Notes under the pieces: generated by a model
The model's database searches: none
The model's input: only the letters and a program-made list of their open reading frames with translations
What the model was told of the DNA's origin: nothing
Shown here: in pieces, positions 2,285 through 63,418 of the stretch
Position numbering within the stretch: the first letter of the stretch is position 1
Layout: every line of letters starts with the position of its first letter
Program-made: the position numbers and the translations under genes
Assembly (NCBI GenBank): GCA_046563655.1
Contig: CM102289.1
Coordinates: forward strand, 3,286,001 to 3,350,000
Direction: 5' to 3'
Length of the DNA: 64,000 bases
Source of the DNA: Yuukianura sp. NJ FZ-2021
Taxonomy: Eukaryota

Positions 2285-2666
2285 ACACATTAATAAAACT
2301 GGGCTCGTGACTAAAGTTGAGTAAATAGTTAATACTAAGCAGACTAGCAATTTTGCATGGCATTGATTCATTTTCCAATATCAATGCATTTGCAAGAACT
2401 TTGGAAATTCCTTCAACTTGTTAATGTTTCACAATTTCTTGCTGCGCATAATAAATTTATGCACAAATCAATCAGAAGACTGATTCTGTAAAATGAGCTT
2501 CGGATTCACACTTTCCATAATTTTGGAATTATATTCCTGACCATCAATATGAAAAATGCTATTCCGAACATCGTGATAGCATCTCAAAAATTTCTGAATG
2601 AGAATTCAATGTCAAGATCGGATTTCAACTTGTCAGGTATAGTAGAATTAAACAAGAACAAAAATA

Positions 2667-40270: not shown

Positions 40271-43009
40271 ATAACATTGGTTCCATGTCAGTTTCCTGAA
40301 AAATTTGCAGTATCTCTTTAGCGGTATACCAGTCAGCTGTTTTCGTAGATTGATAATATTATTAAGGTGGTTGCTTATCTTAGTTTAGCAGATGAACAGG
40401 ATTAGCAGGAACAAGGATTGACTATGCAATCAGTCAAACAATTGTTCCCGTCACGAAGTAATGTTGTCCAGTAACCAGTGTTATCCAGTGGAAGAGGTAC
40501 TTGACCACGTCATTATTAAACTAGCTAATGATTCAAAAATTAAAATTATTACTTTTCAACACGCATCTAAATCTTGTTTCAAACTTTTTGTCAACTTAAC
40601 AGTTCAATAGGATGTACGTTACAAATTCAAAATTTACTTAGAGTTTAGTTTTTCTCATTTTCTTTAATAATATTGAACAAATTTGGAAATACTTATTTCC
40701 AGAAAAATGAAAAATATATTTTTCATTCTAAAATCCTCTGTGACACTTTGCTTCAGAAGCTTAAGCTTGAAGCAAAGTGTCATGTATGATTCTGGAAATT
40801 CCAGACTGGAATGACCCTCATGGGCAAGCAGCGAAATCGAATGTGAGTATTTGGAAAGAAGAAACCGGAATGACTACCGGAAATAATCCAAAATGATAGG
40901 CTATGTGAAGCCCCATGTGTTTCTGGATACTACTGGAATTGTTTTTTGTTTGGCCTGGAATGATGCGGTGTGGAAAACTAAAGTTATTTTGACTGGTGTG
41001 CCTCATCTTTTCAGTTTCACTACAACTTCATCTCTGAAGAAAAAAAATCGTGATCATTTTTCGCCTTCCTTTCGAAATGCTTTTCACGTCACGTCATTCA
41101 TCTCACTTTTTTCTAGATTCAGACTCGGAGCTTCAGCTTCTGAGACACCGGAACAGTAAAACACTTCGCACTACTGCAATTCATCACTTGCCCTTTCTTC
41201 ATCTTCTTCGTCTAGTATTCGATTTTTCACATAAATTTCAGTATCTTCCTCTATACTTGTAATTTATTTGAGCAGCTTTACTTTTCTGTTCAGCGTAATG
41301 TTCAATTCCGTAAGAGTTCAATAAGCTTCAATAATCATTGGAAAAATCGGGAATTTAGTAAAATGACATAGTGTTATCTTTGGTTTCAACTCCATTCTGA
41401 AATAGTAGTTGCAGGAAAAAGCTGAATATGAAATGGAACATGTTGGAAAATTTTTGTTTAGTCAGCTATATGTTGCCAACCAAATGTCAAACATGGCGTT
41501 CATTCTTGTTTATTTCCAGATATGGCCACAAGGCTTTTGTCGGAATCCACTTTCCATTAGTTACATAAAACCATATTTTGCCCGGAAACTTTCATTTCGA
41601 ATTTCAAAGCCCGTCGTGTATTAATATGAGTTCCAAAATGAAAAAGCAGGATATGTCTTAGTTTTTACGTTCGCTTTTTATATTGCATTTACTTTACTAA
41701 ATTATATTATTCATGTATGTACTTCTAGTTTATGTACTTTTCAATGTTCAGTTTACGCGTTGAGCATTTTAAGTTACTGAATTGATTGCTATTGCATTTG
41801 GAAAATGAATGGGAATGGAGCTGTACTAGCTTTTGAATTCAGCAAGCATTAGACGAGGAAGGAATTTGAGAATGTGAACAAATCGTTTTGGTTCTAAATG
41901 AGGCGTGGAACAAGGCATTTGTCTCTGAATTAGCATTTGACTTTATTTAGGCAACTAGCTAAATTAGGAGCTTCTCCAATGTCATGAATCGATACTTGGC
42001 ACCACCTACAGTGAAGTCTTACATCCGCTGGATGCCTCCATCTCCTCCTCAGATCTTCAAATCTCTGTTCTTCCTGCATAGCATCACTTTCCATTTTCAG
42101 AAATCACCAAACACATTCTGAATCCTGAGCAGAATTGGAATTGGACTGATGGAATTCCAATCCAGGCGGAAGTATGTTCTTCTCCCGTCATGTGGAAGTT
42201 TTCTTCCTATGAAAATATTTTCTATCCCAACGGAACGCCTGCTTGCCATTCAGTCGGAGCTTTACCCGTGTCCATTTTCCTACAAAGGCGGCTGCTTTTG
42301 ACTCTCAGAGTGAAAGTGGACGTATAGCATAGTTTTTTTTTCTAGAAGGAATCAGATACACTAGAAGGGCGGAGGGGAAACGTGAGAACAAGTAAGAAGG
42401 GCTTGTTTATCCAAGTGATTTCTAGTGTAGAGGGAAGTAGAGTACTGAAGGGGTAACCACAGCCAGTGGTCGGCTAAAACTGAGAAAACTTGGGAAGAAA
42501 GTGGATTCAAAGAGCCCGCTTTCTTCGAAGGCCTCTGCAGAACTTATTGATTTTTTTTCTATCCGTCTTCTTAATGATTCGAGGGCAAACAAAAGCTTGA
42601 CCAAATACGAGGGAACGGAAAAAAAGAAGACAAACTGCTCTTGCTTTTCATCATCATTTGTTTCCTTTTCTGCCGCACTTGAGGAGAGAGGAAGACAGAT
42701 TGAGACTGTACGAAAGCAGTATTGTGCTGCTGGACGTTTTCACTGGGATATGAGCGCAGAACACGAACAGGGTTCACTGTAAGGCTCCTTCTCTAATGAC
42801 AGCCATCATCATCAACTGAATGCCGGCAAAACTCTTCATTTCTGATTCAAAGTTAAAGCATAGCTTCTTCAACCCAACTGTTTTAATAACCTACATTACA
42901 AAAAAATGCAATTTTTTTGATACTTTGCAAAGGGTATTTAAGGAGGTTTACATGAAACAAAATATTTGCAGCCTTTTCTATTATTTTCACTTACTGTAAC
43001 TAGTTCGTC

Positions 43010-46326: not shown

Positions 46327-46418
46327 AGTAGTGAGTAAGTTGGGACAACAGCACCCTCCTGTTTTTAGTACATCCACGGGGGTTAGTCGGTCGCAATATT
46401 GGGGAGGGAAAAAACTCA
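46327..46418 (+). repeat. Left terminal inverted repeat of the Polinton
   Basis: AGTAGTGAGTAAGTTGGGACAACAGC...AAAAAACTCA; reverse complement of 63327-63418 except one base (46391). Confidence 0.97.
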
Positions 46419-46420
46419 CA

Positions 46421-46533
46421 ACAAAAAAAAATGTCGTCAACAAAAAAGTCGACAACAAAAAATGTCGACAAAAAAAGATCGAAAACAAAAATGTCGACAA
46501 AAAATATCGATAACAAAAAAGTCGACAAAAAAA
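46421..46533. repeat. Subterminal array of seven RTCGAY-like cores separated by A-tracts (~15-bp period)
   Basis: Cores at 46433, 46448, 46464, 46478, 46493, 46506 and 46521 (four exact GTCGAC). Confidence 0.85.
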
Positions 46534-46564
46534 CAAGTAGTGAAATTTTTGTATATAAAATTCG

Positions 46565-46704
46565 AACATTGACTCTAGCCTAGTGTCTAAGTGCTTGTAA
46601 CTACTTCTCTACGGCCGCTGGTTCGAATACCACACGGGTCAACGCTTGTGGTTAAGAAGTTACAAGTACTTAGATACAAGACTGGGGTCAATGTTATTAT
46701 TTTT
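46565..46704 (+). ncRNA. Candidate Pol III (A-box/B-box) hairpin RNA, tRNA-derived / VA-RNA-like
   Basis: A-box-like TAGCCTAGTGT (46576), B-box-like GGTTCGAATACC (46620), 38-nt complementary arms 46565-46602 and 46658-46695, T5 terminator at 46700-46704. Confidence 0.55.
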
Positions 46705-46917
46705 ATTTTAAGTTAAGGATTGAGTTCTTGGAAAAATATCTTTTCTCAAGAAAAACGTTTTTTTTTTCTTGAAAAGTTCTCAAAATAACATTTCTTTAGA
46801 AAAAACGTTTTTGAAAAAATTTCAAAATAGCATTTCAAACGTTGTCCAAGTAGTACTTAAACAGCGAGTTTTGAGACTAGCAATCATCAGTTCAGAAACC
46901 AGTCTCAAACTATAAGC

Positions 46918-47769
46918 ATGCGGGGATTCAGGTCATACATGGAAGTTTCGGAACCGTTTATTGACATGGAAGATGTCATCGCAGTCAAGATTTCTGGACA
47001 TTCGATTCTTCTGACAGCAGAGGAACTGCCAACCGTGGTGGAAAAGCTAGTAAAAGCATACATAGCCGCAGGGGAAATGATGAAGGATTTACCACACTTT
47101 GAAACAATCATGGCAACTAACCGCAAGAATGGATTCCTAAAGTTATTTCGTCAACAGTCACCAGCAGAGTTTCAAACACTCAAAGAAAAGCTGGAGCGAC
47201 CGCTTCTTCCTATCCACTGCATCACAGGCAATGTGAATCGGGTGTTTCTCATACGTAGCGGTCGTCCACTTCCCATCGAAATCATGGACATTCCACTTCT
47301 GGTGGAATCACTTCTAAAGTGTGGCTGCTTTCCGACCTCATATACAGAAAAGTATCTGGATGAGCTCATTCATGAGTCAAAACGTGAATACATGAGAAAG
47401 CTACGCGATAAAATTCTCAACACTCGTGCCAACAGAATTAAAGAAACACTTGGCAAGGCTGCCGGTTTAAAGACGAACAAGAAAGTTCATCCATACAAAA
47501 AACCAAACGTGTTTCACCGATTTGCCTGCTATTTATCTCCAGAGTCTTTCATTTTAAATCCAGCCTACTCGAAGCATGTTCTGGACGTTACCAAACATCA
47601 ACAAATTCAAATTAACAACCAAAGACGTACTCCAAACCATGACTTTAACGAGCACTTTAGACTGGTCCATCTTAACATGTATCGTCAATCGTCATACTCT
47701 GATGATACAGTTCTCAACATTATTTTTTATGGTGTTAAGCAAATTTCAGCTTTTGACATTTTTTGTTAA
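46918..47769 (+). CDS. Polinton hypothetical protein, 283 aa, with two copies of an uncharacterised motif
   Basis: Clean ORF with TATA-like box and TCAGT upstream and AATAAA downstream; motif shared with ORF 48256-48672. Confidence 0.75.
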   Translation: MRGFRSYMEVSEPFIDMEDVIAVKISGHSILLTAEELPTVVEKLVKAYIAAGEMMKDLPHFETIMATNRKNGFLKLFRQQSPAEFQTLKEKLERPLLPIHCITGNVNRVFLIRSGRPLPIEIMDIPLLVESLLKCGCFPTSYTEKYLDELIHESKREYMRKLRDKILNTRANRIKETLGKAAGLKTNKKVHPYKKPNVFHRFACYLSPESFILNPAYSKHVLDVTKHQQIQINNQRRTPNHDFNEHFRLVHLNMYRQSSYSDDTVLNIIFYGVKQISAFDIFC

Positions 47770-47956
47770 ATTGTATAATCTACTTTAGTAGCAGTTTTTG
47801 TATTTGAATAAATTCAAACTTGTACATTTTCAAATTTTTTGTTGTTTGGGTTATTTTATTTTGAGAATGTCGTTTGAGAGTCGTTGAACTTTTAGTCCTT
47901 TCTATTTTTAGACAAAGTCGAAAAAACGTTTATTTTTCCTAGAATTAGGAAAAGAC

Positions 47957-48140
47957 TCGTTTCTGTTGAAAAACGTTTCGAGTTGTTCGTTTAATCCTTT
48001 TTCCAAGAAATTTAAGTTGTTGGAATTGCTAAATATAGAAAAAAGGGTCGTTTCTGTTGAAAAACGTTTCGAGTTGTTCGTTTAATCCTTTTTCCAAGAA
48101 ATTTAAGTTGTTGGAATTGCTAAAAATAGAAAAAAGGGTC
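47957..48140 (+). repeat. Tandem direct repeat, 91-bp unit x2
   Basis: TCGTTTCTGTTGAAAAACGTTTCGAG...AAAAAGGG starts at 47957 and 48048; one mismatch. Confidence 0.9.
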
Positions 48141-48255
48141 AAACTTCTACCTGAAAATTTGGGATAAAAAGGCTGCTCGTTTGCTCAACAAACCATCAGT
48201 CTCATTTCAGCTTCAGTTGAAACTTCTCCTCAAAAACTACTCCTCAAGTACTACA

Positions 48256-48672
48256 ATGGTTGAAGCATACGCTGCAGGATTCGTGAGCAAGACTCTTGAA
48301 GATCGTGTCAAATGCTGGTGGAAGGTAGAAGATGGAGAATACAAAGTCTTTATCAAGAAGGATCGCTACTACACAACAATCGAAATGAAGGAAATTCCAT
48401 TTCTGGTTTCAAAGCTGATTCTCTTCTTTCTCTCGACGGGAAATCCAATAAGCGAGCTACCCAACTTTGAACTATTGCTGTTGGAATGTAAGGAGCGCTA
48501 CGCTGATAAGGGTCAACAAGCAAAGAAGCCGAAAATGGACATTGTGGCTGAAGCGATGAGCAAAGCTGTCTGGAACCGTAAATCTCTCAAGCCCCGCTTG
48601 AATACAATTCCTGAAGAAGACTCTGACGAAGTCGAGGGAAAATACTGGATCGCCGAAGATACTAAATTTTAA
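48256..48672 (+). CDS. Polinton hypothetical protein (138 aa), paralogous motif to ORF 46918
   Basis: First ATG after TATA-like/TCAGT is at 48256; contains KEIPFLVSKL...G...ELPNFE. Confidence 0.7.
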   Translation: MVEAYAAGFVSKTLEDRVKCWWKVEDGEYKVFIKKDRYYTTIEMKEIPFLVSKLILFFLSTGNPISELPNFELLLLECKERYADKGQQAKKPKMDIVAEAMSKAVWNRKSLKPRLNTIPEEDSDEVEGKYWIAEDTKF

Positions 48673-48806
48673 GCAATTTTAAATATTTCTGTTTTGTAAA
48701 AAATTGATAGTTTTAAGAATTCTAAAAAAATAAATTTTTGACTTCCACCAAAAGGTATTTAAACGCTCGTTCTTCATTTTAAATGTTTAGTCTAAAACTA
48801 GCAGCC

Positions 48807-49508
48807 ATGGGAGACTTTTACGTGACTCTGCAGAGTGATTCTTCGTCAAATCATTATCCAGAGAACACAATTACAAATTTTAGAAATCATTTTGCAGAGA
48901 CAATTCGATTAGAAGGTGTAAAGTACGAGGTGGCGCTCGTGGAGTGTACATATGTTCATCATGAATATTTGCTACATAAAGAAGGATGGCTTAGACAAGT
49001 TGATAATTCTTATTTTAATTTGGGTATAATAAACTCGGGTGATGTTACCTTGATTCGTACTGCAGAGGAACTTGCACAACGTATATCTGACAATCTCGTG
49101 GAAGTTGAAATTAAAAACTCGAAAGCTAGTTTTAAAAAGAAACCTGCAAACACAGTTGTCAAGCTTAATGAGGAGGCAGCTAGAATTCTCGGATATGATG
49201 AGGGAAAACAGAGCTTTGAGTACGAGGTTTTTGAGCCGAGTGGACACACACAACTTTTCATTTACTGTAGTATAATTGAAAACCAACGCGTCGGCGGTGA
49301 CCTTGCCCCACTATTGAGAAAAATTTCAAATACGGGCGAACACAAGAAGGTCGTGACCCGATCATTTCAACATCTTCAATACGTGGACGTTGTATTTGAT
49401 GATATTGATCATATTTGGATGTACATCATGACTGAATCTGGCGATCCACCATTATTCACGGTTGGAACTTTTTCTGCCACTCTACACTTTCGACGGAAGC
49501 GATACTGA
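48807..49508 (+). CDS. Minor capsid protein (penton-like, Polinton PX)
   Basis: FYVTLQSDSS..YPENT..NF...IRL...YEVAL N-terminus, LFIYCSII...VGG..APLLR, and TLHFR C-terminus match the Polinton minor capsid pattern as recalled. Alternative ATG at 48783. Confidence 0.8.
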   Translation: MGDFYVTLQSDSSSNHYPENTITNFRNHFAETIRLEGVKYEVALVECTYVHHEYLLHKEGWLRQVDNSYFNLGIINSGDVTLIRTAEELAQRISDNLVEVEIKNSKASFKKKPANTVVKLNEEAARILGYDEGKQSFEYEVFEPSGHTQLFIYCSIIENQRVGGDLAPLLRKISNTGEHKKVVTRSFQHLQYVDVVFDDIDHIWMYIMTESGDPPLFTVGTFSATLHFRRKRY

Positions 49509-49573
49509 GGAGTATAAAAACAGCGCTCAAAAAAATTATCAATCATTAACTTTTCAAACGTCAAACTGTCAAC

Positions 49574-50002
49574 ATGTACAAATGCAACTTGAGCGAGGAC
49601 GATTTCTTTAGAATTTATAATCCCCAGCGTGGAGGAGCTGTTGGCTCGGACGGAGCCGTATTCTTCAAAGCCAATCAGTTTCGTCAGCGTGGTCATGGAA
49701 TTGGCGGGATCTTTGGTTCAATTTTTCGAAAAGTTTTACCATATGTGACCAAATATTTAATGCCTCATGCTAAAACTGCCGTTGCTGGTATAGCTTCTGA
49801 TGTGATTGGCGGGAAAAAATCTGTGAAAGAGGCTATTTCTGAACACGGCTCAACCGCTTGGAAGGGAGTACTTAAAGGCGTTGCAGACGGGATTCTTTCT
49901 ACTCAGTCTGGATCTGGACGTTCAAGGAAGAGGAAGCAAAAACGGAAAGCAAGAGCCGCTCCCAAGAAAAAGAAGCCAAGAAATATATTTGAAGAACAAT
50001 GA
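49574..50002 (+). CDS. Putative virion core / membrane-active protein with protease-cleavage-like Q-x-G-[G/x-G] sites
   Basis: QRGG, QRGHGIGGIFGSIFRKVLP amphipathic segment, QSGSG and a highly basic tail; lies between minor and major capsid genes. Confidence 0.7.
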   Translation: MYKCNLSEDDFFRIYNPQRGGAVGSDGAVFFKANQFRQRGHGIGGIFGSIFRKVLPYVTKYLMPHAKTAVAGIASDVIGGKKSVKEAISEHGSTAWKGVLKGVADGILSTQSGSGRSRKRKQKRKARAAPKKKKPRNIFEEQ

Positions 50003-51300
50003 GTTCCAAACACGCCCCTCACCCAGAAGTAGTTAGAAGTGAAACCGACATATTTAGTGAACCAGAAATGGACGTTAGTCTTCAAAGTAGTGGAATGTTT
50101 GAGTACCATCCATTGTCAGCATTAAATGAAAATGGAGGTCCAATTTCTTTTCAAATCAAAGGAAATGACGTTCACTATGTCGATTTAAGTGAAACTTTGT
50201 TATACGTCCGCTGCAATATTTCAAAAGCAAATAGTGATAAAATGGACGAGAGAGCCACCATGCGAATCGCTCCAGTCAACAACTTTTTACATTCCTTGTT
50301 TCAGCAGTGCTCTGTGTTTCTAAATGAAACACAAATTACTCCAACCATGTCACTCTATCCGTATCGGGCCTATATTGAGACTGTGCTTGCATATGGAGGA
50401 GATTACAAAGATACCCAAGCAGTTACTGCTCTTTACTTGAGAGAGGAAGAGAATTTGAGTGACACTGACACTTCCCACAAAAAGAGACAAGAATTAGCAG
50501 CCAAGGGCTTGGACATGATTGGACGACCGTTTGCTGACATCTTTGCACAAACTCGCTACTTGCTTCCTGGAATCGACATTAGAGTTACTTTCAACCGCTC
50601 CACCGAAGAATTTGCACTCCACTCTCAGGCAGACAATACAAATCGCTACAAAATCAATATTACTGAAGCCAGACTTTTAGTTAAAAAACATACTCTGTTA
50701 CCGAATATTTTGAATTGTCATTTGAAAATGTGGGCTAATGGACAGCCGGCATGCTACCCAATGAGACGGATTGAGATGAAAACGTACAGTTTACCCCTTG
50801 GCACTGTGTCAAATGTGAATGAAAACTTGATTAATGGACTACTTCCTGACAGAATTATACTTTGCCTAGTTCAAAGTGAAAAAATGAACGGAACTCTGAC
50901 TACAAATCCATTTGACTTTAATCCTCCAGAATTGAGACAAATTTCCGTCACAGCAAACGGAGAACAACTTTATCATCAGGTTTACCAGTACAACAGTGAT
51001 GGCGATGTTCGAGTTTCTGAAGCATACTATGGAATGTTTAGCGGTCTTGGACTGTGTGCTAGCAATGAAGGACCTGCTATTAGCCTTTCCGAGTTTACAA
51101 ATGGAAAGGCGTTTTTCATTTTTAACCTCAGAAACATGAATCAAGGCTACTGTCCCCCAAGACACGGAAGTATAAAAATCGTCGTTCAGTTTGCAAAACC
51201 TACCACTGAGGCTTGGAACGTTGTCTGTCACGCTGACTTTCAATCTACTCTGTATATTGACGAAGGAAAGAACGTGTTTTTCAAAGACTATTCACACTAA
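49999..51300 (+). CDS. Major capsid protein (double jelly-roll, Polinton PY / hexon-like)
   Basis: 433 aa, beta-rich; PVNNFLHSLF, YPYRAYIETVL, QTRYLLPGIDIRV, LPDRIILCLV and NPFDF match Polinton MCP as recalled; directly upstream of the protease. Confidence 0.88.
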   Translation: MSSKHAPHPEVVRSETDIFSEPEMDVSLQSSGMFEYHPLSALNENGGPISFQIKGNDVHYVDLSETLLYVRCNISKANSDKMDERATMRIAPVNNFLHSLFQQCSVFLNETQITPTMSLYPYRAYIETVLAYGGDYKDTQAVTALYLREEENLSDTDTSHKKRQELAAKGLDMIGRPFADIFAQTRYLLPGIDIRVTFNRSTEEFALHSQADNTNRYKINITEARLLVKKHTLLPNILNCHLKMWANGQPACYPMRRIEMKTYSLPLGTVSNVNENLINGLLPDRIILCLVQSEKMNGTLTTNPFDFNPPELRQISVTANGEQLYHQVYQYNSDGDVRVSEAYYGMFSGLGLCASNEGPAISLSEFTNGKAFFIFNLRNMNQGYCPPRHGSIKIVVQFAKPTTEAWNVVCHADFQSTLYIDEGKNVFFKDYSH

Positions 51301-51824
51301 TGGACACCACTCAAATTTACAAGTTTTTGTCAAATATGGCTCGCGGAACAAGAGCATATTTCAATGTCATTCCATGCGATCTACTCGGAAAGCTAACAAT
51401 CGCCCGCTTTCCAGCCTATTTGGTTGTAAATAACAAGCCTTCTGATCATCCTGGAGAACATTGGGTGGCAATCTACATTGGAGGCAGAACTGGACCAATC
51501 ATCTTCTTTTGCTCTTATGGACTTGGACTGGATTTTTACCCTATTGACTTTAGAAATTTTGTAAATAAGTTTTCTTGTAAAATTTTGGAAAATACTAGAC
51601 CATTGCAGGCTCTTGACTCTAATGTTTGTGGGCAATATGCAATCTACTTTTTGTATAAAATGATGCATGGCTGTTGTATTCTATCTACTTACTGTCACTT
51701 TTCTCCCAACAAACAATTAAATGATAAAAAAGTACGCAAATTTGTAATATTGAAAAATCCTTTATTGAATTCAAATTGTAAATTTAAACACAAAATAATA
51801 AATCAATGTTGTACAAAATTGTAA
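51300..51824 (+). CDS. Adenain-like (C5, clan CE) maturation cysteine protease
   Basis: VVNN.....PGEHWVA (His), FFCSYG, LQ....NVCGQYA (Gln, Cys); start overlaps the MCP stop (TAATG). Confidence 0.92.
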   Translation: MDTTQIYKFLSNMARGTRAYFNVIPCDLLGKLTIARFPAYLVVNNKPSDHPGEHWVAIYIGGRTGPIIFFCSYGLGLDFYPIDFRNFVNKFSCKILENTRPLQALDSNVCGQYAIYFLYKMMHGCCILSTYCHFSPNKQLNDKKVRKFVILKNPLLNSNCKFKHKIINQCCTKL

Positions 51825-51846
51825 ATTTTGTTGTTGTAATTTAAAC

Positions 51847-52503
51847 TTATTTCCAATTCGGTGGGGTCTTCCATTCGTCCAGAAAGCTGTCATCCACTCG
51901 AGCTCGTTTCCGAGATTTGCGTATGCTTTTTCGATTTTTTCCAGGAGTAGTCACGTCAGAGTCTTCTTCCGTAAAGAGATGGAGGTGTGTTTTGGGTAGG
52001 ATAGACAATGGAAATCTTTTTGAGGTTAAAAAGTTTTTTATAGGTTCGAGTTCATCCTTTGAAATTTTGCATCTTCCATTTGACAGTCTTTTAAGTATTG
52101 AATCAAATGTAGAAATTGGTAGTGATCCACCGTCAAAGTTTACAATTCCTGAGGCTAGTGTGGTTCCATTGTCAATAAAAAATTGCAAAAGATGAACTCC
52201 AAGTCTTGTACGACCACCAAAGTCAAATTTCTCAACTGGCGATGGACTGGGCGGGGTGTCCACTGATGACACGGACGGCTCAGGCACGGATTTAACAATA
52301 CTTTCTGTTTTTTCACGTTTTTTCTTTTCCGCCAATCGTCGTAAAACGTCTTGAAGTAACTTGTTTTGAATTTCTTCCGAATCTTTAATATTGAGCAACT
52401 GATTTTTTTCACTCTCGAGTCTGCCGATTTCAGTTGGTTTAGAAGTTTGAGTCATTAGGCGCTCAAAGTCTTCATCACTAATAACTTTGTATTTTGTAGG
52501 CAT
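51847..52503 (-). CDS. Polinton hypothetical protein, 218 aa
   Basis: Clean ORF (KYKVISDEDFERL N-terminus, coiled coil, basic Trp-containing C-terminus), 2 nt downstream of the pX-like gene. Confidence 0.7.
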   Translation of the reverse strand: MPTKYKVISDEDFERLMTQTSKPTEIGRLESEKNQLLNIKDSEEIQNKLLQDVLRRLAEKKKREKTESIVKSVPEPSVSSVDTPPSPSPVEKFDFGGRTRLGVHLLQFFIDNGTTLASGIVNFDGGSLPISTFDSILKRLSNGRCKISKDELEPIKNFLTSKRFPLSILPKTHLHLFTEEDSDVTTPGKNRKSIRKSRKRARVDDSFLDEWKTPPNWK

Positions 52504-52505
52504 GT

Positions 52506-52841
52506 TTATAAAAGTTTGCCTAAAAGTTCTCCTAATACTGGAATTGCTGCGCCAAGTAGCAACGGTAGAAATCCACCCTGTTGGACAAGAAGACGACGCT
52601 TATGATCTGCTTTTCCTCTGCGTGCAATCAGACGTCTGATGTGATCTTTGTGAGGAATGAGTCGTTTTATAGCTTTTGGTGGAATCACTAAACGTCCATT
52701 GTACACGTTGTGTGCACATTCGCAAATAGCTCGAATTTGTTCTGGACTCGCACTATTTAAATGCAAAGTTCGTTTCTTTTCAGAGCGAGAATTCAAGTTT
52801 TTGAGAAAATCAAGATGCTTGTTGATTTTGCTTCCGGCCAT
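52506..52841 (-). CDS. Adenovirus pX-like core protein precursor
   Basis: Basic body followed by QQGG|FLPLLLGAAIPVLG, resembling the adenoviral pX C-terminus (GG-[FI]LPLL cleavage site plus hydrophobic tail). Confidence 0.75.
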   Translation of the reverse strand: MAGSKINKHLDFLKNLNSRSEKKRTLHLNSASPEQIRAICECAHNVYNGRLVIPPKAIKRLIPHKDHIRRLIARRGKADHKRRLLVQQGGFLPLLLGAAIPVLGELLGKLL

Positions 52842-52906
52842 TTTGATTGCTAGAGACTGAATGATACAAATTGACATGTGCAGCGTCCTTTTATTTCATT
52901 TCCACC

Positions 52907-53927
52907 ATGGACACCGATCTGAAACAACGATGGTTAAACACTTTACTACCTGGAAGTTTTTCTGGAGCAATTGGGTTTCAAAAAGATTCAAACACTAAGG
53001 TGTCTCCACACCGCGTCGGGAAAATTTTGAAGCAAATCCCAAGTTATCAACTACATCGACCAGTTCGATATCGGTTTCCACGTCGGAGAGTTTACGTTGG
53101 AGGCATGCACGAACAGTATTGTGCAGACTTGAAGGACATTCAAAACATGTCGGGAGTCAATAATAAAAAAAGGTTAGGTTAGGTTGGGTTAGGTTAGGTT
53201 AGGTTAGGTTAGGTTACGTTGGGTTATGTGGGTTAGGGTTTTTAAAAACTCGAATTTGTTTTCTAGGTATTTGTTGGTGGTTATTGACGCTTTTTCAAAA
53301 CAAGGCTGGATCGAGGCAACTCCAAACAAGACAGGACCAGTAGTTCTTTCAGCATTTAAAAAAATTTTAGCGCGCAGTGGTGGAAAGCCAAAGAGAGTGC
53401 AAGTTGACAAAGGTTCTGAATTTCTTAATCAACACATGAAGACGTATCTGAAGCATGAAGACATCAAACTATTCTGGACACATTCTCCATTAAAATGTGT
53501 GATTGTGGAACGTTTCATCCGCACACTATTCATGAAAATTCAGCGCTACTTGACACATAACAGAACCAAAAAGTTTGTTGATAAATTGACAGATTTTGAA
53601 AATCTGTACAATCATGCATATCATCGAAGTATTAAAATGGCGCCGTGCAAAGTTACTGAAAGGAATGAGGATGAAGTACGACGCAACTTGTACCCGGAAG
53701 TTGCAGTGGACTATAAAAAGCCTAAACTCAACGTAAACGACCTCGTCCTTGTCGCCAGAATTAAAAAAACGTTTGAAAAGGGCTACTCAACAAACTATAT
53801 TGACGAAGTTTATCGAATTGTGAGAGTTATAGCAACTAATCCATACGTTTACAAGTTAGAAGACCTTGAGGGTACCCCTATTTTGGGTAGTTTTTATGAC
53901 AAGCAACTACTGAAATTGGATCAGTAA
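52907..53927 (+). CDS. Retroviral-like (rve, DDE) integrase, two exons (52907-53172, 53267-53927), 308 aa
   Basis: Splicing gives YCADL...NNKKR|YLLVVIDAFSK, QVDKGSEF and VERFIRT (D-D-E). ATG in CCACCATGG context. SH3-like C-terminus; no chromodomain seen. Confidence 0.93.
53173..53266 (+). repeat. 94-nt intron largely made of (TTAGG)n-type repeats
   Basis: AG|GTTAGGTTAGGTTGGGTTAGG... about 14 pentamers degenerating toward the 3' end, then TTTGTTTTCTAG|G; removal restores the integrase frame. Confidence 0.85.
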
Positions 53928-53951
53928 CTCTACAGAACTCGACCGGAAAAC

Positions 53952-54128
53952 ATGTGTTTTTTCAAACTTTGTGAATACTTTTTAACCAAGATGTTTGCAG
54001 GCAAAGAAGATCCCACCATCTCCGTCTGTGACGAAAACAAGATAAGCTGCATGTGCTGTTCAACCACCGCAAGACGAGGCTCAACCAAGAAACAACATAC
54101 TAAAACTATTTTAGTTACTGAATTGTAA
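53952..54128 (+). CDS. Small hypothetical protein, 58 aa (below ORF-track cutoff)
   Basis: MCFFKLCEYFLTKMFAGKEDPTISVCDENKISCMCCSTTARRGSTKKQHTKTILVTEL*; fills the gap between integrase and ATPase; AATAAA follows. Confidence 0.45.
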   Translation: MCFFKLCEYFLTKMFAGKEDPTISVCDENKISCMCCSTTARRGSTKKQHTKTILVTEL

Positions 54129-54199
54129 AATACACTTTATTTAAAAAAATTTTTGAATAAATCAACTCGAAATACAGAACATTTTGTTTTGAATTTTAT

Positions 54200-55081
54200 T
54201 TATTCATTGACATAAACATAACAATTTTCGGGAAAAATGCTACTTCTAATTCGATAGTCGTCCTTTTGTGATTGAGTCAGATCAATTAAAAGATAGCCGT
54301 AGGGCTTTGCCATGCTCTCCTTGTATGCCAAGTCCATTGTCGCGTTCTTTTTTCCTCCATTCATTTGTCGTCCAAGGCATGAAACAAAAGCAGAGTCTCG
54401 TGGATTCTTCATCAGGACCAAGTATTGACAGTTGAGTGTGATTTCTCTCAAGTTTTTATGGAAAAAGTTTTGAACCAGAATAATCAGAGACACATTTCTG
54501 TGATGAGAAGTTCTCGTGAAGGCTGCTCCAACCTCTCCCTTCTTCCCTGCTTCATGCATCAAGTCATCCAGAACCATAATTGACGGTCTGTCAGTACCAT
54601 CATGCCATTTCTCGGGCAGTCCATGAACAAACTGAATTCCAGGGATTTTTGTTTTTAGTTCTCCAAATAGCCCAGACTGCCATTCCGTGTAACAATAAGT
54701 TACATTTGCAATTCCACTTGAAGTTTTTACAACTTCGTTTCTTCGAATCAAAATTTCCTTGACAAGCGTGCTTTTGCCTGTGTTTGTCATTCCGCTCACA
54801 CACATTGTAAACGGTGCCACAAGTTGCAAGTCAATATCGTCTCCCGACCGTGGATGCTGAAGTAGAGTGGCGGCGGCGGTAAGGGCGGCGGCGGGGGCGG
54901 GGGCGGCGGCGGCGGTGGAACTCCCTCCATCGGTGGGGCCCGCCCCACCGCTGGCTGGAACCACCCAGGATGTGGCGGCGGTGGTGGGAGAGATGGAGAA
55001 ACATTTGAAACATGTCTTCTCGTGACGCTTTGCAACGTCAGAACGCGAAAATAATTTACCACAGCGAGAGGAGACCTGCAT
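54200..55081 (-). CDS. A32/FtsK-like DNA packaging ATPase
   Basis: PFTMCVSGMTNTGKS (Walker A), IMVLDD (Walker B), SHHRNVSLIILVQN and YGYLLID. Confidence 0.93.
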   Translation of the reverse strand: MQVSSRCGKLFSRSDVAKRHEKTCFKCFSISPTTAATSWVVPASGGAGPTDGGSSTAAAAPAPAAALTAAATLLQHPRSGDDIDLQLVAPFTMCVSGMTNTGKSTLVKEILIRRNEVVKTSSGIANVTYCYTEWQSGLFGELKTKIPGIQFVHGLPEKWHDGTDRPSIMVLDDLMHEAGKKGEVGAAFTRTSHHRNVSLIILVQNFFHKNLREITLNCQYLVLMKNPRDSAFVSCLGRQMNGGKKNATMDLAYKESMAKPYGYLLIDLTQSQKDDYRIRSSIFPENCYVYVNE

Positions 55082-55299
55082 GGTTCAAAGAACTAATGAC
55101 GACTAAAATCAATTTCAGAAATTTTTTCTTTATTTATATACAAATATTTTAATTTTAAATTAAAATTAAAATTAAATTAAAATTTAAATTAAAATAAAAT
55201 TAGAAACTAAAAAATAAAATTAACTTGAATAATTTAATAAATTAAATATTGAATATTTTAAAAAATATGTTAAAAATTAAAAAAATTTGCACAATTGTA

Positions 55300-58200
55300 T
55301 TAGGCTGGAATATCTTTATGTCCAAAAGCTAAAGTGTTTACATTATCTACAGCGTATCTCTTGGTGTCCAATCCGTTGAGAGCCCTCTTCATGGTTACTT
55401 CTGTGAAAATTCGGTGTTCGACGCTTCTGAAACCGCGCATGGTAACCATAGTCTGCACATTCTCCTTGAGGACTCGCTCATAGTCTTCATACTTGACCTG
55501 ACCGTTAACCGCTGTTTTTGTAATTCCCTTTGCCTTCTTGGTATACTCATCCTTTAACAGCCATGAACCGTCCGACTTCTTCTGATAAATAGTTCTTCCG
55601 GAGAGGTCACACTTGGCGGTCTGGATTTTGAGACTTCGAATGGTGTACATCTTCGGTCTTGGACAGTACACATGCGTGATAACGGCACCAGCAGCCTCAT
55701 CCTTGAATTTTCCCAGAACTTTTTTGTTGACAGGGTCGTGAAACTTTCCGAATTGTGGATGATCGGCTGGATACTCGCTCATATCGTACAATTCCTTGTT
55801 TTCGAACATGTCCTGGTACACATCCTCGGTTTGAATGTGATAAATGAATGAATCTGCAAGGAAAAAATTGTTTTTACATTTAGCGTAAAAAATTTTGACA
55901 AAAACTAAAAGTAGTTTATACTTACCAGTATCGGTGTATATTAAGCGGCACTTGTCTCCATATTTTGCCTGCATGCCAACCCTGTGATGATGATACATGA
56001 TGCTCTTGGCTAGCTCAAGTACCGTGACTCCTGTGAAGATTGGCTTGGATAGTGTCACTTGAAGTTTCTTCATCATAAAGACACAAGTCGTTTCATTTAT
56101 TGGAATCACGTTCTGGACTGTAGGTTTCTTATTGTAGTAAAGCGCCTTCTCAACCGTTGTGACAATGCGAACATTCTGACGATTACGGACTTGCTCGATT
56201 GTCTTTCCAAATGCGGAGTTGTTCAGCAGCTTCCAAAAGTCCTTGGCAAAGTCACTGGTGGCTTTTTTTTCTCATTTCCGTATTGAAGTCAATAAAGTCC
56301 TTCATCCAAGCGTGCTGTGTGAAGGAGATACCTCTGTGAATTTTTGTGACTTTAACCCCCATTGCCAAGTATTCCTTGAGAATGGCGTGATGAAGGATGT
56401 AGCTTTTTTTGTTGTTCAAATCTGCAACAAGTTTTTTCACTTTGAACAATCCGGGTCCAGACTTGAGGTCTTCCATGAGTTGATGCTGATGAGCAGAGAG
56501 CTCGTCCAGTGTGACAGTTCTTGCAGTAGGAGCTGGAGGATAATCATTAAGCCGATCATGGAGTTCGGGGTCAATTTCCAGGTCAACCTCTAGTAAATAT
56601 CCAGTATCCTTCACCCTGTCCGTTTCTGCAATGAATCCGTCAATATCTCCCAAAATTTTATCTATTTGAGCCTGAGTCAGCCAACGAAAATCTCCAACGG
56701 GAAGCGCTAGACTCATTGCTTTTCCCTAAAAAATATAATAAAATTAATTTCTGACATATTTTCATTAAATGAAATAAATTATGAACATATAAGTTACTAA
56801 CGTATAAATTATTCGCGTCAATGTAAATGATATAATAGTTGGGCTCCTCCGGGTTATACTCGTCGCCCATGTAAGGATGGTTTGCAGTTGCAGAACGTCG
56901 AGATCCCACACACACGAATCCGCCTAAATTAAAAAGAAGTGGCTAGTTTATACCAATTTCAATTATTTTCAATATAATTTCTATATAATTTCTTACCTCT
57001 GATCGCATGCTCTAAGAAACAATGCATCGTAGGGTCGCTGATTAATTGCAGAACAACTCCAGACTTTTTTAGAGCACAATCAATGGCCATCATTGGAAGA
57101 GAGTAGTAATGACCCAGTTCCAGACCGTAACTGTCCATCATAAGCTTCCGAACGCCTTCCATAACGTCAGCTAGAAGGGAGACATCCAGGCGAACGTAGA
57201 GGTCATGCCACTCACCCATGTTTTTGATTTTGAAGCTTTCCCAAACCTTCTGGGCATGTTCGTAAACTGTATCTTGAATTGGTGTTTCGGTCATGTCATT
57301 GAAGAAGGCTTCTTTTGGAGGTAAACTTGTCATTTCAAAGTCTTCACAGGATTTCATAAGTGAGTATGGGTAGGCGCCTTTCTGGAAGAGAAGATCGATG
57401 TTGGCGCCACTGTCGACTTCCTGTTGGAATTCTTGTCGGGTGACTGGAAAGGTGGCATTTGGGTCTTGACGCATTACCTTAACCAAGCCGTCTAGGGATT
57501 TGAGTGTGAAGCCGAGACTGTCTGTAAATCGTAGTTTGTACTTTTCACGTCTTCTAGCATTCCCGACAATGTCTTCGTCGTCTTCTTCTTCTTCTGCTTC
57601 TCCCGAATACTCTGGAGTTACTGTTACACACAAGTACTTCTCGCTACTCTTTGGAATAACGTCAACTTTCTTGATGATTTTGTCTTCTGTGAGCTTCCCC
57701 ATTGATTGTATCAGGAAGTGAACGTCGTAGGAGGATAAGTTGTGCAGGAATACTGGAAATTCCTTTTTGATCTGAGCTTCAAGATTGCAAAATTGATGTG
57801 CCATACCAATGTAATTGAAAGGTGGAAGGTGTGTATGGTGTCGCACTCTTGTTTCACCGAAACAAAATGCTTTTTCACAAAAACAGCATTTTGTTTCGCG
57901 TTCTGAGGCTTCACACTGTTCTCGGGTCATGTTTTGATCCAGCATTCTCGGAGCAATCTTCTCATATTCGTCAACTTCTTTTTGAAGAAATTTGGAGTAT
58001 CTGAGAATGCTCTCAACGAAGTGTGCAGCTACGTCTTCATCATCGTCTGTCATGTGATAGCACTCTCCATAGCGACGGTTACCGTTAAAGTCAACGCAAA
58101 CCCATGCATATCCACATGGCTTGTGGATATTAACACGACCGGTGTTTTCCTTGACTTCTTTTTATTTTGATCCAGTCATTTTTGCTTTGTGCCGTTGGCG

Positions 58201-59748
58201 GCAGACTTCGTGTTCACATGTAGAGTCAAACTTGTTGAGAAACGCTTCAAAATCAGCGTAGAAGCGAAATGGAATGGGCTGAGTTCTAGCCCATTTGTCA
58301 AATTTCAACTTGCACTTATCCCCCTCTGGGTATTTGACTTTTTGAAGCCCCAATGCAGCACAGTATGGAATATGTTCTTTTAGCGTTTTTGCAAGTGTAA
58401 AGTTTGAAAGACAATTTCGACAAATGTGCAACGTGTGGTGAACATTCGGAGGCTTCATCAGCGCTTCAAGATTTCGAATTAGAAGAAAGTGAGCGTTGTT
58501 GCCTTTCATCAGGCACATCAAGTCCATGTGAATTTGTTTGGATTCTTTCGAATTGTAGAGAATTGAAATATTTTCCTGCATACATTTGAACAAGTCGAGG
58601 TCTTCCTTTTGGGTGGCCTTTGACCTTTGACGAGTAGTCTCGTTTTTTCGCGGTGGAGGGGCTGGAGCATCCATGTCATAGCCGAGAACTGTTAGTGAGA
58701 TGTTTGGATTGAGTTGCTCGAAGCGTGGCAGTTGCTGTAGGGACATTGGCCAGTGTAAACCTTGAGTGTTTACCTTTGACGCGTGGGGGGCGTAAGTTTT
58801 GACCTTCTTGTCCACTTTGTAACGATTTCTTCCAAGAGTCGCTCCGACTATTTTATCATGAGCGAGCACTGCCCAAAGGAAGCACTTATTTTGAGAGTTT
58901 GACGGTGTTACTTCACTATTGTCAATGTTTAGCAATGTTTTGTTGTGTTCGGAAAGAGGGAATGGCGTTTCAATAAAAGTTCCAATTTTGGTAAATTGGT
59001 ATTTGGCGGTGACGAATTTAAACTCGGAAATATAGGCCAAGTCCCACCCACTTCCCTCATTTGTAAAATTTTCAATTTGGTTTGACATCTGATGACCCAT
59101 AATATTCCACACCTTTGGAATACTTTCATCAGTGTAAACAAGATGACGAAAAGACGTGAAACAGCCGCGGTTGGTCTCGACGGTGCCGTTAATGTAAGAC
59201 TTTGTGAAATTACATACCATTGAGAAGAATACTTTGACGTTCTTCCATTTCTTTCTGTCTTGCTTGATACATGCTGCAGATGAATCGTAGACACACTTTA
59301 AAAAATCGCGTTCATCGACACCATTTTCACATTTAAAGTCTTCAAATACCGCCCTGTATTGTGTCACCGTGTTTAGCGATGTGAAAAGTGGTTCTACGGT
59401 TATTGGCTCCAAATTTGTTGGAAGTCGACCTCCATCTTGCGTCAGATCAGAGAAAAAATCTGGATGAACTTCGTAAAAATGTTTTTGCATTTCATCGCGA
59501 CACGGAAATGTCAGATTGCATGGTGGACATTTCATTTCACGGTACATGGAAAGAACGCCTGGGCCATCTGTTGGCATCTGTGGAAGTTGTTGTGTTGCTT
59601 CGCTCACAGTCTCGTCCTCTTCATGCTGAATGTGAATGTGAATGAGCAGCTGATTTGCGCATGGAAACTTCTCGTTGCAGATTTCGCATGTGTGGCACCC
59701 GCGCTTAGATGATGGACCCGGAGCGGGAGATGCAGATCTTTTCGCCAT
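55300..59748 (-). CDS. polB: Protein-primed family B DNA polymerase, about 1408 aa after splicing; this copy has an in-frame stop and a +1 frameshift
   Basis: YADFE (ExoI), HNLSSYD (ExoII), KGAYPY, IR|GG, DANNLY|G, KLLNNSAFGK, YTDT|DS, PKMY. Introns at 56924-56996, 56726-56801 and 55854-55925; TAA at 58162-58164; extra A in the run at 56263-56270. Confidence 0.95.
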
Positions 59749-59812
59749 GTTTTCAAAGCTGTGAATTTATGTAAAATGCATTTGTGAATTTCCAAAATAA
59801 TGTTATTTAGTG

Positions 59813-60070
59813 AATGTTAGTTATATAGCTATAAATAATTAAATAATCAGAATAAACAAGCTCCAAAATGTGAAATCGAATTTTATTAAAAATTTCCTTT
59901 GAGAAATCACTGAAAAATCACTAAAAAATGGGATCATAGCTAATGTTAGTTAATAAATAATCAAATAATCAGAATAAACAAGCTCCAAAATGTGTAATCG
60001 AATTTTATTAAAAATTTCCCTTGAAAAATTTCCTCTGAAAAAGCACTGAAAAATCACTGAAAAATTAATA
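59813..60070. repeat. Imperfect direct repeat (~129-bp period) with CACTGAAAAA motifs upstream of polB
   Basis: AATGTTAG...AAATAATCAGAATAAACAAGCTCCAAAATGTG.AATCGAATTTTATTAAAAATTTCC begins at 59813 and 59942. Confidence 0.8.
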
Positions 60071-60485
60071 AAAAATGAAAGCATTGTTAATAATAGTTAA
60101 AAAAGTGTCAATGAAATGTTAAGAAGCCGTTTTATAGGTCAGTTGTTTTTATAATTTATTTATGTTTCCAGCATCCATTTTGAAAAGTCACTGAAAAATC
60201 GGTTTTTCTGTTGTAACTTTTTTCAGAGAAGCGTTAAATGAAAACTAAAACCAGCGCTCGATTCCCCATCAAATTCTGTGTTGGAGAGTAACCTTTATGA
60301 CTCTTTAAATTATGAAAAGCATAAGCCACATGCAAAAAACGTTCAAATTAGTGTTAAAATTAAGCGCTACTTTAAGTGGCTGTAACTTTTAAGGCATTAA
60401 GTTTATGTGAAAACAAATTGCACCAGCGGATTCGCCAGGCAAATGTGTATTGAAATCAGTACTTTAAGCACTGATTAGTGACAAA

Positions 60486-61983
60486 ATGGAAAAAACTGAA
60501 AATTTTTAAAAGTACCAGTGCAGAATCAGCCCCTTCAAGAACTCCTGCGCAAAGCCAGTGAAAATCAACAGTTTGTCGACGCCATTGCTGCGGAACAGCC
60601 TCTTCCAGCGTACTTTTACGACCACTGGGAAGAAATCATGGAAGTGTTGCTCCTCGACATGAGAGGGAAACCTCTCGGAGTTCCTCGGGAGATTCGCGCC
60701 GATTACTCGGCAGTCGTCGACAAATTTTTGGCAATCAGGTAAGTTTTCAATCATTAAAAACTTTATTACCCAAATTAAAAACAGTTAATTTAAATTTTAA
60801 AAACAGTTAATTTCAATTTTAAAAACAGTTTAAACACGACAATTTGTTAACTTTATTTCAAAATTTCAGAAACACAACCACTGATCGCGACGAGCTCATC
60901 AATATGGTCAACGGAATTGTTCGTACACAGCGCGGACTCCAGGAAGTACATTCGTACTTCATGCTCAAGAATATCCTTCCGGAACATCGCGCAGACTGGA
61001 CGGTTTCAGTCAGCTACACACCTCTTCCGGACACTGCTCAAATTAAAACGGAAATCCCCGCTGCAGATTTGTACTGGGCAAGGGAATTCCCACTCAAGTG
61101 CAAAGAAGTTTACTACGATCACGGCATCGTTAAGGTGGCGAAATCTCACGTAGACGAACTTCGGAAAAACCCAGCAAGTGGAACCTTCCCTACTGTTTTC
61201 ATCGCGTTCATGACGGTTAGTTGCGTTATATTTTACATATTTACTATTTATTAAATTTACTAATTCAGGAAATTTACTAATCATAAATTTGTTCTGTTTT
61301 TGTGTAGAAACTCATGGAAGATGTCAGAACTTCAGGGAAAAAAATTCACTACGTCCCGACGGAGCAAGCATGGCGTTGTGTGAAGTGGAACGTGTCGGAA
61401 GATATCCAGCCGGCTTTGGGCTGTCCCTACTACGACCTAAGAGCGACATCGTTTATGAGCCCGACAATGGACGTGTTGGGCATTATTGATGTGCCGTTTT
61501 TGGCCATGCCATCGGACACTGAGATCCTGCTGGTTAGCGTGAAAATTCCAGGACATATCCTACTAGTAGCCGTTGACATCAAAAATTGGTAAGTTTTCAT
61601 TTATTATGTTACTTTACTTCATTGTGGGTTTGCATGTGCTTAATACTGTTGTTTTATTTTTTAGGTGTGGCTACTTTTATGACTCATTTGCGCCAGCGAG
61701 GCTCTTCAATGTGAGAATTCAACTGGACAGAGTTCTCCGCCACAAATTCAACATGCCTTATTCCATTCGATGGGACTACGCCAACTTTAATCGCAACATA
61801 TTCTACTCATCATTGGGACCGGCCAACAACTGCGGCAGACTTGCTTGTCATGCTGCGCGAATGGTTGTTGAACATGGAAATGCTGATGTCCATAACAACA
61901 TCGACCTTGCTGGAATGCGGCGGACATATAATCTTATTATCAAGTATGCTAGGAATGCCCGCATCTGTAAGGGTGACAAGTAA
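60486..61983 (+). CDS. Ulp1/SENP-like (clan CE) cysteine protease-fold protein, four exons; start uncertain
   Basis: Introns 60739-60869, 61216-61307 and 61589-61664 join four ORF-track pieces in frame, giving ILLVSVKIPGHILLVAVDIKNW|CGYFYDSF...NNCGRLAC (His-Asp-Cys order). ATG 60486 needs one extra base to join the frame. Confidence 0.7.
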
Positions 61984-62287
61984 ACCGTCAGGAAAAAACG
62001 TTAATCAGTCTTAAAGTTATTTTGTTTGATTTGATTTTTCTTTTATTCAACTTTTTTTAACTTAACAACTTATAAATTTTGTTTTTTAAATAATACAATT
62101 TACTTTATATTTTTTAAATTTTTAAATTTTTACTATTTTATTAAACTTTTTAACTTTATAACTTCTTAATTTATTATAAAGAATACAATTTACTTTATAT
62201 TTAAAACTTTTTTAAATTTTTTACTTTTAACATTTATTACAACATTATAAATAATCTAATTATTTCAAAAATTTATTGTCGTTTTAT

Positions 62288-63061
62288 TTAGTTACGTTTG
62301 CTCAAACGCTGAAGAGCTAAGCGACGACGATATATGTTTAGCTTAAAAAAAGCAGCAGATTGTTTCAATTCCTTCCGACGACGAATCCATCGTTGGAACT
62401 TTTCTTTGCGCAAACGTTGCAATTTTTCTTCGCGCATTTTTAATTGATATTTTCGATGAGATTCTTCCAACTCTTTGTCAAATTCAATGGATGACTCCAG
62501 AAGTAGCCGCCGGAGTTCCTGATTTCTCTCCCCACGATGTCGTGCGTCTTCAATACTTCCAAGGGCTTGATACGTTTCGTATCTGCATCCGTACGTCTCG
62601 TATCTGCAGCTGTAGCGATGAGGCGTGATGTTGATTACAGTGTCATCCCGAAAAATGCCGCGCTCAAAGTCGAATTTTTCGGTGAGGGGTAGTAGCTCTT
62701 CGATGGAACAATTTTTGAATAGTGAAACTTCGACTGACGTCCTGAGTGGTGCAATCGCCGTCACAAAGTTTTTCGCCGTAAGGACGCGTCCAATCGGAAA
62801 ACTTTTTAGAGCCGCCAGCACAACTCTAAACATTTGTTTCTTCTTGAATTCAAGATGGACGATATGTGTCTCACCAACACTTATCATAAATGGGGTGTAC
62901 TCTGCAACTTTGGCAGCCATCTTGTCAAGCATTGGCTTGAGTATGGCTAAGGAATCTGGAAATACTTTAGCCAGTTGCAAAGCGCTAGACCTGTCCAAAT
63001 TTGAAAATATTTCTAATTGGCACAGGTATGGGAGCTGCTCGAAATCGAATTTATATGCCAT
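62288..63061 (-). CDS. F-box-containing protein with basic coiled-coil C-terminus
   Basis: N-terminal FEQLPYLCQLEIFSNLDRSSALQLAKVFP fits the F-box consensus L..LP.E....IF..L....L..L..V; first ATG at 63061. Confidence 0.7.
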   Translation of the reverse strand: MAYKFDFEQLPYLCQLEIFSNLDRSSALQLAKVFPDSLAILKPMLDKMAAKVAEYTPFMISVGETHIVHLEFKKKQMFRVVLAALKSFPIGRVLTAKNFVTAIAPLRTSVEVSLFKNCSIEELLPLTEKFDFERGIFRDDTVINITPHRYSCRYETYGCRYETYQALGSIEDARHRGERNQELRRLLLESSIEFDKELEESHRKYQLKMREEKLQRLRKEKFQRWIRRRKELKQSAAFFKLNIYRRRLALQRLSKRN

Positions 63062-63326
63062 TTCGACAATAACAAATTTACTTTGCAATTACTGTTTTTA
63101 AAAAGTTTTTTTCAGTTGTTGACGCGGCAAGAGAGAAGCTGAAAATGAACAACTTTTTAACTTTGTAATACACAAAAATAAAAAAGTATTTGTTTTTGCT
63201 CCGGGCGTTGGAGAATTCAAGGAATTGACAAGTTCAAACAAGAACTTTCGTTTAAAAGTTCTTGGAATTTGTTAGGCCTCGGGTGTTGGAAAATTCTAGG
63301 AATTGTCAAGTTCAAACAAGAACTTT

Positions 63327-63418
63327 TGAGTTTTTTCCCTCCCCAATATTGCGGCCGACTAACCCCCGTGGATGTACTAAAAACAGGAGGGTGCTGTTGT
63401 CCCAACTTACTCACTACT
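63327..63418 (-). repeat. Right terminal inverted repeat of the Polinton
   Basis: Reverse complement of 46327-46418 (91/92 identical). Confidence 0.97.

Follow-up and report, generated by a model that had tools for sequence, protein, structure and literature searches.

A candidate telomere-repeat intron in the integrase gene of an arthropod Polinton

In the window (the whole 64-kb stretch of DNA analysed here), the integrase gene of a Polinton/Maverick element is interrupted by an insert of 94 nt, which starts with 65 nt of (AGGTT)n and whose ends have the form of a GT..AG intron. We tentatively propose that this insert is a young spliceosomal intron, born in one step from a telomere-type insertion at a break, and we give this proposal as a whole somewhat less than an even chance. 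Judged from the sequence, the insert is probably spliced at least in part and, if it is, a one-step origin by telomere-type insertion would be rather likely.

The integrase gene, its insert and the element

Exon 1 of the predicted integrase gene (52907..53172, + strand) is a single frame from the ATG at 52907. It comprises 88 codons plus the AG of a split Arg codon, contains the first catalytic Asp (..CADLKD..) and has the 3' end ..AAT AAT AAA AAA AG. Exon 2 (53267..53927, +) begins G TAT TTG.. in a frame shifted by one with respect to exon 1. Its first G completes the split codon, and 219 codons and a stop at 53925-53927 follow; the second catalytic Asp (in VDKGSEF) and the Glu (in ERFIRT) are encoded here. 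The insert between them (53173..53266, +) is a putative phase-2 intron with GT at 53173-53174 and AG at 53265-53266, the donor reading AAG|GTTAGG and the acceptor TTTGTTTTCTAG|G. A direct repeat of 4 nt, AGGT, marks both ends: the left copy (53171..53174, +) is a proto-splice site whose AGG shares the register of the repeat array, and the right copy lies at 53265..53268 (+). An earlier note on this DNA had described an integrase split at AG|G by a 94-nt GT-AG insert, with AG|GT at both junctions, and both statements can be read directly from the letters at these positions.

Upstream of the acceptor lies the pyrimidine tract TTTGTTTTCT, such that the insert ends in an 11-nt pyrimidine-rich tract plus AG. 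No clear branch-site consensus was seen in the insert (no host-specific model was applied), and Rfam gave no match anywhere in the window. Of the 102 positions in the Pfam rve profile, exon 2 matches only 25-95 (E 9.8e-10), in keeping with a first strand and first catalytic Asp encoded by exon 1. Both integrase frames are open apart from the insert, with D, D and E all present, and the predicted spliced integrase is 308 aa long, the same length as its closest relative, with a junction reading ..NNKK-R-YLLVVID... The predicted RNA fold of 53150-53290 (z -2.3, matched by 5/200 shuffles) is uninformative. In this fold, nine bases of exon 1 (53156-53164) pair across the insert with a complementary stretch of exon 2 (53279-53287); this is probably a coincidence, both stretches coding for conserved residues.

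The element spans 17,092 bp (46327..63418) between terminal inverted repeats at 46327-46421 and 63324-63418 (95 nt, 98% complementary, starting AGTAGTGAG..), with a target duplication ATTCC(A) on both flanks. The hallmarks of a Polinton/Maverick are thus present: terminal inverted repeats, a 5-6 bp duplication, an rve integrase and a type-B polymerase. The latter scores 25.5 bits against DNA_pol_B_2, just below the cut-off of 25.8, and has 8589 relatives, the long ones being colinear over the gene. One ORF has a weak match to Pox_A32, the poxvirus A32 packaging ATPase (E 0.0049, below the cut-off), while Pfam returned nothing for the element's other ORFs; an adenain-like motif was recognised by eye only. 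The ATPase-like ORF contains a GGC x15.7 repeat (54869-54915, -), which codes for an Ala/Gly/Pro-rich stretch near the N-terminus. Two further repeats were noted in the element: an A-rich tandem array of 15/28-nt units with GTCGAC-like cores just inside the left inverted repeat (46423-46533), and a 91-nt unit present 2.1 times at 97% identity (47950-48140).

The polymerase gene (55306-59556, -), with weak C2H2 zinc-finger matches in its N-terminal part, is itself interrupted. Its introns were defined by nine long relatives (1179-1405 aa), for which the alignment blocks break alike in 9/9. Intron 1 (56924..56996, -; 73 nt) reads AG|GTAAGA..TTTAG|G. Intron 2 (56726..56801, -; 76 nt) reads TAC|GTTAGT..TTTTTTAG|G, with the GTTAG type of donor also found in the integrase insert. 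Intron 3 (55854..55925, -; 72 nt) reads G|GTAAGT..TTGCAG|A and splits the motif YTDT|DS, excision restoring YTDTDS. On this evidence the element's genes are predicted to be interrupted by short host-style introns. At 94 nt the integrase insert is longer than the polymerase introns (72-76 nt), and its A+T content is 62% against 76-86% in the element's other introns, the lower value being due to the G-rich repeat.

Two defects were noted in this polymerase gene: an in-frame stop occurs at 58162-58164, and the frame shifts within an A-run near 56262-56270. Both may be genuine lesions, or the assembly may contain homopolymer errors here. In the former case the copy is non-autonomous, and the intactness of the integrase becomes a weaker argument. 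This copy may then be decaying and the integrase insert may be one more lesion: an unspliced telomere-like or microsatellite insertion that inactivates the gene, with GT and AG as by-products of the repeat and an A/T-rich filler. We regard such an inactivating insertion as unlikely, although not far-fetched. It would agree with the stop and frameshift in the polymerase of the same copy and with a composition unlike that of the element's other introns, but the element has three other interruptions of the same kind, and both integrase frames are otherwise intact. Nor would a mere lesion lead one to expect AGGT at both ends of the insert, or a right end made of a unique, non-repeat, pyrimidine-rich tail plus AG that restores the split codon exactly.

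Uninterrupted relatives and the derived state of the insert

A protein search with exon 2 returned 41 relatives, many of them single ORFs of 307-310 aa, the best of which (P0001) has 66% identity. When 11 homologues were compared with the window by tblastn, the N-terminal match stopped at 53173 in 11/11; the C-terminal match started exactly at 53265 in 4/11 and extended poorly into the insert in the other seven. P0001 aligns in two blocks, residues 1-88 at 52907-53173 and residues 88-305 at 53265-53918. Residue 88 (Arg) aligns on both sides because AGG can be read at each copy of AGGT, the second at 53265-53267. In a multiple alignment of the homologues (A1), exactly one column, occupied by R or K, separates the two exon pieces, so that excision of the 94 nt neither adds nor loses a residue. 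By these alignments, the insert sits exactly where an intron would have to. In a distant integrase relative (P0027, 39% identity), the ORF starts with MLIFLFLIFYT right before VVIDAFSK, which could represent read-through of a pyrimidine tract, i.e. an interruption near the same site.

We scanned metagenomes with a second integrase alignment (A2) and obtained 68 related loci, all of them distant (52% identity or less). Both halves of the integrase were matched in 13; at 11 of these the halves adjoin in a single frame, with 0 extra nt between them, whereas the remaining two (L033 and L035) are distant partial matches and uninformative on the insert site, leaving 11/11 informative loci empty. At a further 43 loci the match begins at the junction: 34 of these are open for at least 60 codons upstream and contain the first-Asp motif, five run off the contig and four have shorter frames (L010, L017, L034 and L040), with the first-Asp motif still adjoining the junction in L010 and L017 despite the short frames. 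L040 and its neighbours of the same sample series were considered as intron carriers and rejected as stop-ridden pseudogenes. A search of viral contigs with alignment A2 found no relative.

Close relatives were available as Logan contigs of four DNA runs, from two studies and under two organism codes. These contigs break at the repeat (53160-53230 is uncovered), and the empty sites are related loci rather than orthologous alleles; no joint was reported in the contigs of the four runs. The 3' 36 nt of the insert are joined to exon 2 in contigs under both organism codes (X2 record 9 and X3 record 19). The X3 contig has 6 differences in 481 nt (~99% identity) and continues for 20 further letters into the repeat. 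Insert-bearing contigs thus occur in two studies, at a depth close to that of the neighbouring exons (depth is not copy number), which speaks against a simple inactivating insertion. One X2 contig is aligned from 53265 on and is preceded by 12 loose letters that encode Asn-Asn-Lys-Lys in frame with AGG TAT, and these differ from the exon 1 end of the window at three third-codon positions only. It appears to be an insert-free, synonymously diverged copy, as read from this single 12-letter end.

The four runs contain 138, 109, 31 and 237 contigs at 88-99% identity, and the family is therefore multi-copy. Among the 40 of 200 differences listed, the integrase coding sequence accounts for 17, of which 11 are synonymous and 6 are not, so the family as a whole has been under constraint. 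The listed differences that separate the insert-bearing contig of organism B from the window comprise three non-synonymous codons and two synonymous sites; there is no sign of selection after gain of the insert. Among the contigs of run X3, organism B's main one parts from the window after 53711 and a second one returns to it at 54151, so that the integrase 3' end and spacer are replaced or deleted in that copy.

The earlier note had proposed comparing the site in related Polintons. That comparison finds 11/11 informative metagenome loci uninterrupted, with a short or non-repetitive intron in none of them, and by it the insert is the derived state. This bears directly on another account of the repeat, in which a short, non-repetitive intron beginning GTTAGG.. 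came first and AGGTT then expanded from the donor region by replication slippage. A GTTAG seed at a donor would be natural here, as polymerase intron 2 starts GTTAGT; the motif seems prone to arise or persist, with (TTAGG)2-3 present at six other loci in the 64 kb; and the units decay towards one side, as they do in ageing microsatellites. The predicted precursor is, however, seen neither at the 11/11 informative loci nor in the one insert-free contig, and removal of the repeats would leave ~30-60 nt, at or below the 72-76 nt of the element's introns. We consider a secondary expansion within an older intron rather improbable.

The TTAGG array, the host telomere motif and donor choice

Tandem Repeats Finder delimits the array as (AGGTT)13.6, equivalent to (TTAGG)n, at 53171..53237 (+), with 80% matches and a score of 92; the G-rich strand is the sense strand. 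The first nine units are near perfect, and the variants TTGGG, TTACG, TTATG and TTAGGG come later, which bears out the earlier description of a 5' part of ~70 nt that decays towards the 3' end. The window contains 12 matches to TTAGGTTAGG against 0.13 expected, a count reached in 0/100 shuffles, and the array is not due to chance. Five of the 12 lie in the integrase array and the other seven at six loci with just 2-3 units, such that the integrase array is the only long TTAGG array in the window. The caveat, raised in the same note, that short GGTTA runs are common here was well founded. The six loci lie beyond the Polinton (11485-11512, 22332, 25319, 25675, 35405 and 43989) and in 5/6 the run is followed by C. 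The run at 11485 falls within a perfect 20-nt palindrome (AGGTTAGGCT|AGCCTAACCT).

The non-repeat tail (53239..53266, +; 28 nt) is A/T-rich and provides the acceptor with its pyrimidine tract and AG. No second copy was found in the 64-kb window when up to 3 mismatches were allowed. As possible templates for a filler, exact matches of 13 nt and 12 nt at 49111 and 52730 were considered and set aside as too weak (E 0.02 and 0.08). The tail also bears on whether the insert is a copy of a mobile intron-generating element, such as an introner-like transposon or the tail of a truncated retroelement, that brought its own splice sites and duplicated AGGT. Introners do populate Maverick-Polinton proviruses in dinoflagellates, according to the available portion of PMC11957031, and a 4-nt flanking duplication would suit such an event. 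The insert, however, is without terminal inverted repeats, its tail is single-copy in the window and the rest is simple repeat; we hold a mobile element to be very improbable.

The host was placed from its own genes in the window, where G+C is 35-41%. A nicotinic receptor gene of the alpha6/alpha7 type with kilobase introns occupies 9817-25063 (-), and its last exon has Folsomia candida as the best named match (78%), the next full-coverage arthropod proteins reaching 59-68%. On these matches the host is an arthropod nearest a springtail. Taxon hints from the Atlas pointed to Arthropoda for the P450 exon and to Nematoda for the channel exon; the nematode hint was discarded in view of named matches that are all arthropod, while a search with the P450 exon yielded no hit. 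Three alternative copies of one receptor exon (20003-20092, 17516-17617 and 16240-16341) resemble the mutually exclusive exons of insect alpha6 genes. Elsewhere in the window, a ~2.8-3.1 kb unit with P450 exons occurs as a tandem triplet (25700-34700; 63-97% identity between segments) and a ~2.5 kb unit with MFS/sugar-transporter exons as a tandem pair (1-5000). There is also a non-LTR retrotransposon (LINE; 36608-40384, -) whose 963-aa ORF encodes reverse transcriptase and endonuclease domains and is immediately preceded, in frame with it, by an ORF of 294 aa. Staining has revealed (TTAGG)n in Collembola, with confirmation in F. candida, as stated in the available part of PMC8977481. Judged from these reports on springtails, the insert repeat would be the host-type telomere motif.

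The repeat has consequences for donor choice. Among 15 GT positions in or next to the insert, only that at 53173 keeps the frame. Tandem decoy donors follow at intervals of 5 nt (53178..53213, +), with AG|GTTAGG at 53178, 53193, 53198, 53203 and 53208 (the first four of these sharing the longer form TAG|GTTAGG) and degenerate versions in addition. Use of the donor at 53178 gives a frameshift, while all later donors include the in-frame TAG at 53180-53182. Unspliced RNA is predicted to stop at this same TAG, three codons into the insert, and translation would yield just a short N-terminal piece that lacks the catalytic core. At -3 the first donor has A and the decoys T. By the donor consensus, A at -3 confers a small advantage, and T at +3, as in the insert, is an uncommon choice. 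As only the first donor is productive and five identical ones lie downstream, much of any splicing may yield dead transcripts. The earlier suggestion that tandem donors limit integrase output stands as arithmetic, donors other than the first leading to a frameshift or to TAG; the reduced output itself is a prediction. A weak donor facing five identical decoys is also what an unspliced, inactivating insertion could look like.

Origin of the insert and comparison with known systems

Under the proposed origin as a young intron, the coding sequence would have been broken at ..AAAAAAAGG^T.., an AGGT proto-splice site. Repair would have added ~13 TTAGG units, with the exposed AGG as an in-register primer, and ~28 nt of filler, and would have duplicated the 4 nt of AGGT as at a staggered break. 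As the units read AG|GT and the filler happened to finish with a pyrimidine tract and AG, the donor would fall at the first base of the insert and the acceptor at the last, and the host spliceosome would remove the insert exactly to restore the uninterrupted reading frame across the junction. Synthesis outward from the left end, followed by messy joining, might explain why the perfect units lie by the exonic primer and the degenerate units by the filler; the same gradient fits slippage in an older array equally well. We infer telomerase or telomere-like synthesis as the source of the repeats. The earlier note had offered, besides slippage, healing of a broken linear viral genome as a possible route. 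Nothing speaks for this idea in particular: an internal insert needs both ends rejoined, and ordinary break repair fits equally.

Three marks of a break insertion are seen here, namely AGG in register, the 28-nt unique tail and the 4-nt AGGT duplication. Set against the intron reading are the T at donor +3, the five identical rival donors, the 62% A+T and the broken polymerase. We consider it doubtful, though by no means negligible, that the full sequence of events took place, in which telomerase or telomere-templated healing of an exon break made a functional intron in a single event and the decoy donors now throttle integrase output.

Zhuo et al. 2007 reportedly described introns that arose from tandem arrays with splice-site-like units, with longer units than here, in human genes and often with alternative splicing. 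Such arrays would share with the integrase insert a donor-like motif in the repeat unit, which gives rise to splice sites and to many alternative donors. They would differ in that the unit here is a 5-nt telomere repeat and one donor alone keeps the frame.

Short interstitial telomeric sequences inserted at double-strand breaks have been described in primates, rodents and horse, according to the available portions of PMC7215372 and PMC2246262. For the mammalian insertions, the available text of PMC7215372 states that 35% of loci have at least 3 in-register nucleotides (no more than 1.6% expected), that 18% have random filler and that 4.5% have a target duplication. The integrase insert resembles what these extracts describe in being a short telomere-type run at a non-terminal site, with in-register nucleotides, filler, a target duplication and an empty ancestral site. 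The mammalian repeat is the hexamer TTAGGG, whereas here we find the pentamer TTAGG, in a coding exon of a virus-like element and apparently itself an intron. Human telomeric insertions are stated, in the same portion of PMC7215372, to lie in introns and intergenic DNA and never in exons, where they would be disruptive; this counts towards an inactivating insertion in the present gene.

As a model for the precise gain of introns, the available part of PMC3443670 names insertion into AGGT that duplicates the site, and it also attributes intron gain in Daphnia and others to break repair with short flanking direct repeats. In agreement with gains of this kind, as described there, the insert has AGGT on both sides, junctions of the form AG|GT..AG|G and a coding sequence unchanged once spliced, and is young, lineage-specific and short. 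It departs from them in that telomere-type repeats are legible, where the inserted DNA was mostly of unidentified origin (one mitochondrial) in that account, and in that a mobile-element gene is affected. Dinoflagellate introners, so far as the available portion of PMC11957031 describes them, likewise provide new introns in genes of integrated Polinton-like elements. They are multi-copy transposons with a family consensus, in contrast to a simple repeat with a unique tail, in an animal host and single-copy in the window. Within the literature searched, in which subscription journals are thinly covered, no intron made of telomere repeats was found, including in the available parts of PMC6759080 and PMC6726248. 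Introns in Polinton-like elements, telomeric insertions at breaks and intron gain with AGGT duplication are thus known separately, and we found no report that joins them as here.

How new spliceosomal introns are born is still argued, and break-repair insertions at AGGT usually consist of anonymous DNA; the DNA in this insert is readable, in an integrase that can be compared with many intron-free relatives. With sequence as its sole evidence, the case is neat and its mechanism legible. Should the insert be spliced, it would link telomeric insertion at breaks to intron gain, and would make the element an example of an integrated virus-like element that accumulates host-style introns, with four in this copy. 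It would also be a natural case of a productive donor in competition with identical unproductive ones. If the proposed origin is true, telomere addition would be a previously undescribed source of introns, in which each TTAGG unit is an AG|GT donor and a telomeric patch on an exonic AGG can be spliced from its first base once the filler gives an acceptor. The break-repair model of intron gain would then have a case in which the origin of the DNA can be read.
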